Of a stretch of 43,301 nt of DNA, positions 42,409 through 43,301 are shown piece after piece (positions within the stretch are counted from its first letter, which is position 1; the number at the start of each line of letters is the position of its first letter). Position numbers and translations under genes: made by a program. Under the pieces are notes generated by a model. The model had not been told where the DNA came from, made no database searches, and worked only from the letters and a program-made list of their open reading frames with translations. The DNA comes from a bacterium (lineage in GTDB: Bacteria; Patescibacteriota; Minisyncoccia; Minisyncoccales; CG1-02-41-26): positions 1 to 43,301 of the forward strand of contig JAGYMG010000001.1 of the NCBI GenBank assembly GCA_018400675.1, given 5' to 3'.

Positions 42409-42744
42409 ATGTCTAAAGTGTGCCAAATCTGCGGTAAAAAATCAATAGTGGCCAGAAAGAGAAACAAGCTGAGAGGAAAATATAATCCTACTCCTAAAAA
42501 AAGAAAATATCCCAATCTCCAATGGGTCCGTTTGCCATGGGGCAAAAGAGTCTTAGCTTGCACCCGCTGTATAAAGACTCTCTCCAAAACAAAGAGAAAA
42601 GAATCAGCTATCTCTCAACAAGAAGAAATTATTACCCAGGAAGAAGAGCCCAAAAAAGAAAAAGAGGAAGTGGCTGTAGCTAAAAAAACCACTAAAAAAA
42701 AGGCTCCTTCAAAGAAAGAGACAAAGAAGAAAAAGAATAAATAA
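42409..42744 (+). CDS. rpmB: 50S ribosomal protein L28 (Cys4 form) with a Lys/Glu-rich C-terminal extension
   Basis: MSKVCQICGKK...NLQ...CTRC matches the L28 N-terminal pattern. The tail from about residue 60 is low-complexity K/E. Confidence 0.65.
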   Translation: MSKVCQICGKKSIVARKRNKLRGKYNPTPKKRKYPNLQWVRLPWGKRVLACTRCIKTLSKTKRKESAISQQEEIITQEEEPKKEKEEVAVAKKTTKKKAPSKKETKKKKNK

Positions 42745-42753
42745 TTTCTTCTC

Positions 42754-42825
42754 CGGGATGTTGTATAGTGGTTATTATACAGGGCTGGGGGTCCTGTGAC
42801 CTGGGTTCGATTCCCAGCATCCCGA
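42754..42825 (+). tRNA. tRNA-Pro (anticodon GGG), no encoded CCA
   Basis: Hand fold. The 7-bp acceptor pairs CGGGATG with CATCCCG and has C1:G72 plus A73. The D-loop contains GG. The anticodon stem pairs CAGGG with TCCTG and the loop is CT-GGG-GG. The T-arm is CTGGG-TTCGATT-CCCAG. Confidence 0.8.
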
Positions 42826-42833
42826 AAGAAAAA

Positions 42834-42857
42834 CTGCCTTTCCCAAGGCAGCTTTTT
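42834..42857 (+). terminator. Intrinsic terminator after tRNA-Pro (CTGCCTT-TCCC-AAGGCAG + T5)
   Basis: A perfect 7-bp stem, a 4-nt loop, and a T-run at 42853-42857. Confidence 0.7.
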
Positions 42858-42861
42858 ATTA

Positions 42862-43005
42862 GAAACAAAAGCCCCATTCTTGCTCTCAATATATCCTAGA
42901 ATAAATGCAATGGCGGGACTCGCACGCCAGACCCGATGAGCCTGACAAATATTGAATCCCTGCTAAGATATTTTGTCTAGAAATTTAATTGAGAAGAACG
43001 GGGCT
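42862..43005 (-). ncRNA. Candidate ~140-nt rod-shaped small RNA of unknown family
   Basis: A promoter places +1 at the first base of an 18-bp interrupted helix that pairs the 5' end (AGCCCCGUUCUUCUCAAU) with the 3' end (AUUGAGAGCAAGAAUGGGGCU). The helix is followed by UUUUGUUUCU. Two base pairs are G-U on the minus strand but A/C mismatches on the plus strand. Confidence 0.45.
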
Positions 43006-43012
43006 ATTATTA

Positions 43013-43042
43013 ATTGTAGATAAGACGAACAGACATTGTCAA
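43013..43042 (-). promoter_or_regulatory. Candidate promoter of the small RNA (TTGACA-18-TACAAT)
   Basis: On the minus strand: TTGACA at 43037-43042, an 18-nt spacer, and TACAAT at 43013-43018. Seven nt further on is the A at 43005. The -35 begins 8 nt after the ndk stop. Confidence 0.5.
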
Positions 43043-43050
43043 GCTAAGAA

Positions 43051-43301
43051 CTAGAACATTATCTCTTCTTCGTTTCTCTTATAATGGAAGATATCTTCAG
43101 CCGCAAACCAAAAACCTAATTCATGCTCTACTTCTTCTGGGCTCTCTGAAGCATGGACAATATTATGGATAGATCGCTTTTCCCGATTAGCTGCTGTAGC
43201 ATCATCTACTGAAAAATCACCCCTAATTGTCCCCATCTCTGCTTTGGATGGCATCGTATCACCGGTTACCTTCCTCACCATCTCGATAGCATGCACACCC
43301 T
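43051..43301 (-). CDS. ndk: Nucleoside diphosphate kinase, C-terminal part (gene runs off the window)
   Basis: GTIRGDF, the active-site context NIVHASES (usually N.vHGSDS), and an E.E..FWF-type tail. Confidence 0.85.
   Translation of the reverse strand, partial: GVHAIEMVRKVTGDTMPSKAEMGTIRGDFSVDDATAANREKRSIHNIVHASESPEEVEHELGFWFAAEDIFHYKRNEEEIMF

Follow-up and report, generated by a model that had tools for sequence, protein, structure and literature searches.

6S RNA and its closest described relatives

6S RNA mimics an open promoter and binds the RNA polymerase holoenzyme that contains the primary sigma factor; it then templates a short product RNA from the 5′ strand of its bubble, and this product unwinds the bubble-proximal helix, with refolding freeing the enzyme (PMC8876501). 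Truncations of Bacillus subtilis 6S-1 RNA to 78 and 82 nucleotides (nt) still bound polymerase in vitro, templated product RNA and retained release, with binding ~10-fold weaker (PMC8876501), and a natural version of 136 nt is therefore credible. Positions 43005 to ~42866 on the minus strand of the DNA analyzed here (43,301 nt of contig JAGYMG010000001.1, hereafter the window) are very probably an ssrS gene encoding such a miniature 6S RNA, of ~136 nt. All coordinates refer to the window, and the RNA is read from 43005 down to 42862. The original prediction, made from the letters of the window, was of a stand-alone structured small RNA downstream of the nucleoside diphosphate kinase gene (ndk), either a reduced 6S-like RNA or an undescribed small RNA.

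Like Escherichia coli 6S RNA (SsrS) and B. subtilis 6S-1 RNA, the RNA is a rod composed of a closing stem, a central bubble of ~15/14 nt, and an apical stem. The family to which it belongs also shares with 6S RNA the signature GGGAG…CACCCAC(C/U)UGGA beside the bubble in most members, the presence of one gene per genome with a strong sigma-70 promoter, and potential alternative helices using the 3′ strand of the bubble-proximal helix. Unlike 6S RNA, it is ~136 rather than 160 to 200 nt long, with both arms about one-third shorter, and it has an internal loop (AAUAUUUG/GUGA), conserved 7 bp from the bubble, that is not among the described elements of 6S RNA. The Rfam-positive 6S RNAs of other Patescibacteria classes (e.g., L149, L151, L152, and L154; 153 to 158 nt) come from the same phylum and have the same layout, but they are 10 to 20 nt longer than the Paceibacteria family, score 49 to 73 bits with the Rfam 6S model (RF00013), and are found by standard annotation.

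Two further systems are relevant. The engineered B. subtilis RNAs 6S78 and 6S82cp indicate that a short-armed bubble suffices for polymerase binding, product RNA synthesis, and release (PMC8876501); these RNAs are artificial and lack the whole “−35-like” arm, whereas the natural miniature retains an apical arm of ~20 bp-equivalents. Ms1 RNA of Actinobacteria (PMC9130861) likewise has a 6S-like rod shape and stands in for or supplements 6S RNA in a lineage where the Rfam 6S model fails, but it binds core polymerase, is ~300 nt long, and has no sequence homology, and nothing in the miniature RNA suggests binding of core polymerase over holoenzyme. Standard annotation would miss the gene in the window, but it is a homologue of a very well-known RNA with the same layout, and the result involves no new principle.

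Homologues, promoter conservation, and covariation

The host genome, assembled to 828 kb in 189 contigs with 85% completeness, belongs to the Patescibacteria (Paceibacteria), and its closest relatives, identified through the neighboring ribosomal protein L28, are metagenome-assembled genomes of Paceibacterota, Nealsonbacteria, and Parcubacteria. A search of the host genome for further copies, as proposed with the original prediction, found the element to be single copy, the sole additional BLAST match being 19 nt long (E value of 1.3). BLAST-type DNA searches of 60 relatives returned short chance matches only, and nhmmer searches of syntenic loci returned three full-length homologues from other genera. 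All four founding sequences have TTGACA-N16-18-TAnAAT just before the first helix and a U-run just after the last, and they share the same rod fold despite differing stem sequences.

Of 39 genomes of the family, 30 were positive for the RNA with a covariance model built from the four sequences (R1); each had a single orthologous copy, and two gave a weak second match. A second model (R2), built from 33 sequences and applied with strict filters to 301 genomes from across the class, matched once in each of 53 and scored the window copy at 112.7 bits. In an alignment of 64 distinct sequences, which was fitted to the covariance model and is thereby biased towards the structure, 90.4% of cells form standard pairs, compared with 34 to 54% when partners are slid by 1 to 3 columns; compensatory (both-side) changes occur at 28 of the 29 modelled pairs, and none of 500 shuffles equalled the observed values. 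RNAalifold, run independently on this alignment, recovered the closing stem (P1), the helix on the apical side of the bubble (P3), and the apical hairpin (P4) and predicted no pairing across the bubble. Compensation was found at 14 of 29 pairs in the initial four-sequence MAFFT alignment.

The layout of closing stem, central bubble, and apical stem is common to all members, and the two strands of the bubble measure 15.7 ± 1.0 and 14.0 ± 0.7 nt in the 64 homologues. Sequence conservation is found at the bubble edges and in the internal loop, namely (G)GA-CAAA, GGGAG, AAUAUUUG, GUGA, and ACACCCACUUGGAUU. The window copy groups with L090, L092, and L093 in a small, diverged set in which the pairing of P3 is complete and the CACUUGG motif has eroded. 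A promoter matching at least 9 of 12 consensus positions (TTGACA-like −35 and TAnAAT −10) precedes 57 of the 64 homologues, and in 41 of these 57 the end of the −10 element lies 5 to 7 nt from the first model position or helix. A U-run directly follows P1 in most homologues, and a separate hairpin terminator is present in the remainder. Single copy number, the conserved promoter, and strong covariation support a stand-alone, separately transcribed gene, in line with the original proposal of a stand-alone RNA and with its expectation of covariation in relatives.

Two further observations were made in relatives. Genome G006 appeared to contain a second 6S-like gene, L119 (G006:C6:3316-3472; one of the two weak second matches), with the same sequence as L122 (G115:C7:1096-1250) from another family of the class, and the two have identical scores, GC contents, and Rfam scores. 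A paralogue of the 6S-1/6S-2 type was considered for G006 and rejected, as the sequence is the same as that in the genome from the other family and the contig is probably mis-binned. In L118, a 7-nt repeat of the CTAAAYY type, arranged in inverted arrays, builds a perfect-looking 129-nt hairpin (positions 2615 to 2743), which lies ~1.3 kb downstream of the relative’s 6S gene and is the source of spurious plant microRNA matches in Rfam.

Similarity to the Rfam 6S model

Rfam 15 gave no match on the element at gathering thresholds across the whole window and none at an E value of ≤10 in positions 42700 to 43150; only tRNA and noise were returned. The gathering threshold of RF00013 is 46.4 bits, a curated annotation cut-off and not a biological feature, and it was exceeded in none of 40 relatives of the order. 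One strong sub-threshold match in these relatives (42.4 bits; E value of 7.7e-8) coincided with an R1 match; RF00013 matches there were confined to this family, and no other 6S candidate was found. When permissive filters were applied to the family loci, RF00013 aligned over its full length (model positions 1 to 187), at the same coordinates and on the same strand, at 12 loci, representing 11 distinct members (L119 and L122 share one sequence), with scores of 42.4, 41.6, 40.2, 37.4, 37.3, 33.4, 30.7, 29.1, 27.4, 25.7, and 23.5 bits (E values from 1.4e-5 to 1). No other Rfam family recurred on the family loci.

The RF00013 alignment places the family GGGAG on GGGag and CACCCACUUGGAUU on CCCACCUggaA, flanking the central bubble, and deletes ~30 positions of the apical stem. 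The 6S signature tested consisted of GGGAG on the 5′ side of the apical stem and CACCCACCUGGA leading into the 3′ bubble strand; it is present beside the bubble in most members as GGGAG…CACCCACUUGGA (also written GGGAG…ACACCCACUUGGA). The window copy retains GGGA…UCCC, but GCCAUUGCA replaces CACUUGGA.

Similarity is also seen in the opposite direction. Across other classes of the phylum, RF00013 detected 6S RNAs of 145 to 195 nt above its cut-off in 8 of 251 genomes, and R2 matches several of these Rfam-positive 6S RNAs over their full length (E values from 5.6e-6 to 6e-3). Scores with RF00013 and R2, respectively, were 58.4 and 42.3 bits for L152 (R2 E value of 5.6e-6), 59.4 and 40.3 bits for L151, 48.9 and 31.6 bits for L154, and 73.2 and 27.1 bits for L149. 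The 6S assignment of the window copy is thus a transitive one, made by way of the family model, yet both directions of comparison support it, a result that favors the reduced 6S-like RNA of the original prediction. The Rfam check proposed with that prediction gave no RF00013 match to the window copy itself, sub-threshold full-length matches to the 11 distinct relatives, and none with the small signal recognition particle (SRP) RNA model (RF00169). Its alternative of an undescribed small RNA holds insofar as the Rfam cut-off misses the clade and no paper was found linking 6S RNA to CPR (candidate phyla radiation) bacteria, Patescibacteria, or Parcubacteria; otherwise, the RNA is a homologue of 6S RNA.

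Since the Rfam model is silent above its cut-off in this order, the genomes appear to lack 6S RNA yet carry a miniature version, and inclusion of these sequences in the Rfam seed would recover 6S RNA in Paceibacteria. The family would place the natural lower size range of 6S RNA at ~130 to 145 nt, complementing the B. subtilis 6S-1 truncations (PMC8876501), and would indicate that a global regulator of RNA polymerase is retained even in genomes of 0.5 to 0.8 Mb. Separately, 26 of the 251 Patescibacteria genomes have an RF00013 match at an E value of ≤0.001, and 6S RNA is probably under-annotated throughout the phylum, not only in Paceibacteria.

Promoter and predicted fold of the window’s RNA

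The RNA gene has its own promoter on the minus strand, with a −35 hexamer TTGACA (43037 to 43042), 9 nt past the ndk stop codon, and a −10 hexamer TACAAT (43013 to 43018), separated by 18 nt and matching 11 of 12 consensus positions. Seven nucleotides (TAATAAT) separate the −10 hexamer from the A at 43005, near which the 5′ end of the RNA is predicted. In the minimum free energy (MFE) fold, the minus strand from 43005 to 42862 (144 nt) forms a single unbranched rod of −56.8 kcal/mol with a paired part of ~136 nt; dinucleotide shuffles gave −32.6 ± 3.6 kcal/mol (z score of −6.8), and none of 200 was as stable. The plus strand folds less stably (−40.5 kcal/mol; z score of −4.0), which, together with promoter orientation, supports the minus-strand RNA that had been proposed.

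The closing helix pairs nt 1 to 18 with nt 116 to 122 and 126 to 136, giving 18 bp with one G-U pair and a GCA bulge. The 5′ strand of P1, AGCCCCGUUCUUCUCAAU (42988 to 43005), is taken from the MFE fold, and all seven modelled outer P1 pairs covary; the 3′ strand, AUUGAGA-GCA bulge-AGAAUGGGGCU (42870 to 42890), rests on the fold and covariation. The U-tract UUUUGUUUCU (42860 to 42869, minus strand) abuts this 3′ strand, and P1 with the U-tract looks like an intrinsic terminator. The bubble-proximal helix P2, the equivalent of the 6S “downstream” helix, is formed by UUCUAGA (42976 to 42982) and UCUAGGA (42894 to 42900), the latter pairing with 42982 to 42976; both-side changes occur at all seven pairs, and 88.5% of cells are paired in the 64 sequences.

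The 5′ strand of the central bubble, CAAAAUAUCUUAGCA (42961 to 42975; 15 nt), opens with the family-conserved ACAAA and is the predicted template for product RNA, while the 3′ strand, the “−10-like” one, is GCCAUUGCAUUUAU (42901 to 42914; 14 nt), which has diverged from the motif CACUUGGAUU shared by the family and 6S RNA. P3 is formed by GGGAUUC (42954 to 42960), whose GG never varies within the family and is the counterpart of GGGAG in the Rfam 6S consensus, and GAGUCCC (42915 to 42921), the family version of which is GAGCACCC; its first two pairs are GC in 64 and 63 of the 64 homologues, respectively. The internal loop has AAUAUU on its 5′ side (42948 to 42953), part of an (A/U)AUAUUU block that alignments A2 and A3 show to be conserved, and UGC on its 3′ side (42922 to 42924), where the family has GUGA/UUGC. 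The apical hairpin P4, UGUCAGGCUC-AUC-GGGUCUGGCG (42925 to 42947), is variable in sequence and conserved in pairing (7 of 7 modelled pairs covary, with 96.1% of cells paired in the 64 sequences), and in the window copy it is a continuous 10-bp helix with the loop AUC.

All sequence features originally listed were recovered where stated, among them the promoter and its distance to the A at 43005, the 18-bp end helix with one G-U pair and a 3-nt bulge, the U-tract directly behind it, and the GGGA/UCCC helix and apical hairpin, the last two also covarying in relatives. Comparative data revise two elements. The second helix was proposed to pair AUAUCUUAG with CUAGGAUAU, but the conserved pairing is UUCUAGA/UCUAGGA, and the proposed helix is one possible alternative; the unpaired stretches, put at ~12 and 9 nt, are 15 and 14 nt according to comparative data. 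The alternative helix, between AUAUCUUAG (42971 to 42963, distal 5′ bubble) and CUAGGAUAU (42899 to 42891, P2 3′ strand), has a predicted energy of −8.6 kcal/mol in the window copy (z score of −3.7), with none of 200 shuffles as good.

Proposed mechanism

By homology with 6S RNA, the bubble between the two helical arms would imitate a melted promoter, and the RNA would fill the active-site cleft of the primary-sigma holoenzyme of RNA polymerase, keeping polymerase off promoters while nucleotides are scarce. When nucleoside triphosphates return, polymerase would synthesize a short product RNA with the 5′ bubble strand and P2 as template, a step that would unwind P2, allowing its freed 3′ strand to form an alternative helix and the enzyme to be released. 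The product RNA might start at the conserved C of GA-CAAA, which has an A on its 3′ side, a guess that fits the rule noted in PMC8414754.

The alternative helix in the window copy would involve the distal 5′ bubble, in the style of the B. subtilis “central bubble collapse helix,” while in many relatives its partner would be the 3′ bubble, the E. coli arrangement. Pairing of the 3′ bubble with P2 in a hairpin beats shuffled sequences (P ≤ 0.05) in 18 of the 64 relatives, where ~3 would be expected. Refolding of this kind is a plausible but tentative step.

The 6S RNA’s presumed partner is a primary-type sigma-70 encoded on contig C112 of the host genome, with regions 1.1, 1.2, 2, and 3 present before the open reading frame (ORF) is cut by the contig end. 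This sigma factor also has an extremely lysine-rich N-terminal extension of ~90 residues ahead of region 1.1.

Alternative explanations

Several findings weigh against identification as 6S RNA. The window copy has no RF00013 match even at an E value of ≤10, so that its assignment is transitive, and no family member reaches the gathering score, the best having 42.4 bits. Most of the CACCCACUUGG motif is lost from the window copy, which reads UCCCGCCAUUGCA. The RNA, at ~136 nt, is shorter than the 160 to 200 nt usually quoted for 6S RNA (PMC8414754), and its apical arm (~20 bp-equivalents) may fall short of the region that mimics the −35 element. The window copy lacks the 3′-bubble/P2 hairpin, and the collapse-type helix is at chance level across the family (2 of 64); no conserved release helix is therefore claimed. 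With an apical arm that may be too short for sigma region 4, and with the conserved AAUAUUUG/GUGA loop lying 7 bp away from the bubble, the RNA may engage polymerase differently, with no −35 mimic, faster cycling, or another contact, or it may serve another partner in these host-dependent bacteria, although either is rather unlikely.

The same features would suit a lineage-specific RNA that descends from or resembles 6S RNA and performs another job, as a conformational switch or as part of another ribonucleoprotein, without sequestering polymerase: the missing RF00013 match, the two short arms, a strongly conserved internal loop that is not a described 6S element, and the possibility of mutually exclusive helices. 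Model similarity to bona fide 6S RNAs in both directions, a bubble of the same size with the same flanking signature, the strong, housekeeping-type promoter on a gene found once in each genome, and the lack of any other 6S candidate in these genomes (RF00013; 40 relatives) make such a role improbable. A simpler function, in which hairpin and U-tract only end or stabilize the ndk mRNA as a 3′ untranslated element, would be consistent with the position of the element, which begins 45 nt after the ndk stop codon (43053 to 43051) with no terminator in the gap, and with the presence of ndk immediately upstream on the same strand (gap of 20 to 150 nt) in 21 of 60 homologous loci. However, the RNA and its promoter are kept in the other 39 loci, where the upstream gene is not ndk, and the RNA is thus not simply an ndk 3′ element. 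The near-consensus promoter 5 to 7 nt ahead of the helix and the conserved size and sequence of loops and bubble, which a terminator does not need, also leave this explanation very little room.

Two other interpretations are less probable still. The imperfect inverted repeats of ~18 to 20 bp at both ends would be expected of a miniature inverted-repeat transposable element (MITE) or other mobile element, which the original prediction considered the main alternative, but the element occurs once in the host genome, relatives likewise have one copy each, at positions that are partly conserved, and the “repeats” covary as an RNA helix that includes G-U pairs; a mobile origin is consequently barely credible. 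A divergent SRP (4.5S) RNA would also form one rod-like hairpin of roughly this size, and no SRP RNA was detected in any of these genomes. Nevertheless, the apical hairpin and its loop vary freely in sequence and, as first noted from the window, lack SRP motifs, having no GNRA tetraloop and no AGG/AGCA symmetric loop. Neither RF00169 nor RF01854 gives a signal on the element, and the genomes lack the Ffh M domain and SRP-type GTPases and so offer no protein partner, making identity with SRP RNA extremely improbable. A miniature 6S RNA is preferred over all of these.

SRP pathway in the order

The whole SRP pathway (Ffh, FtsY, and SRP RNA) may be absent from this lineage, as judged from genome searches in which 35 of the 40 genomes were at least 90% complete. 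Small SRP RNA (RF00169) was found in none of 41 genomes (the host and 40 relatives), and large SRP RNA (RF01854) was found in none of 31 genomes of the order. The Ffh M domain (PF02978) was likewise absent from 31 of 31 genomes of the order and present in 14 of 14 controls. For the Ffh/FtsY GTPase domain (PF00448), also positive in 14 of 14 controls, only weak P-loop fragments were found, in 8 of 40 genomes, covering model positions 2 to 81 of 196 (mostly 3 to 50) and scoring ≤23.6 bits. No DTAGR or TKLDG motif was found in any real ORF of the host genome. A regular-expression search of the genome for SRP RNA domain IV gave two candidate hairpins with GNRA loops (contigs C146 and C114), which were rejected, both lying inside long ORFs on the opposite strand. 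No paper was found reporting absence of the SRP pathway in this order.

Organization of the locus

Transcription would start at the RNA gene’s own near-consensus sigma-70 promoter and stop at the U-tract behind the closing stem or at a second hairpin terminator 10 nt beyond it. This bidirectional hairpin (CTGCCTT-GGGA-AAGGCAG; hairpin at 42851 to 42834, within 42825 to 42851) has T-runs on both strands; it was scored on the plus strand, and the minus-strand T-run was read from the sequence. Upstream of the RNA gene lies the 3′ part of ndk (43051 to 43301, minus strand; PF00334, E value of 4.6e-14), which is cut by the end of the window. On the other side, beyond the second hairpin, a tRNA-Pro(GGG) gene (42754 to 42825, plus strand) is convergent to the RNA gene, and the hairpin between them probably terminates both the 6S RNA gene and the L28/tRNA-Pro unit. 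Ribosomal protein L28 (42409 to 42744, plus strand; 111 amino acids) is of the Cys4 zinc-ribbon form, with a Pfam score of 25.9 bits, just below the cut-off of 27, and has a C-terminal extension of ~50 residues rich in lysine and glutamate.

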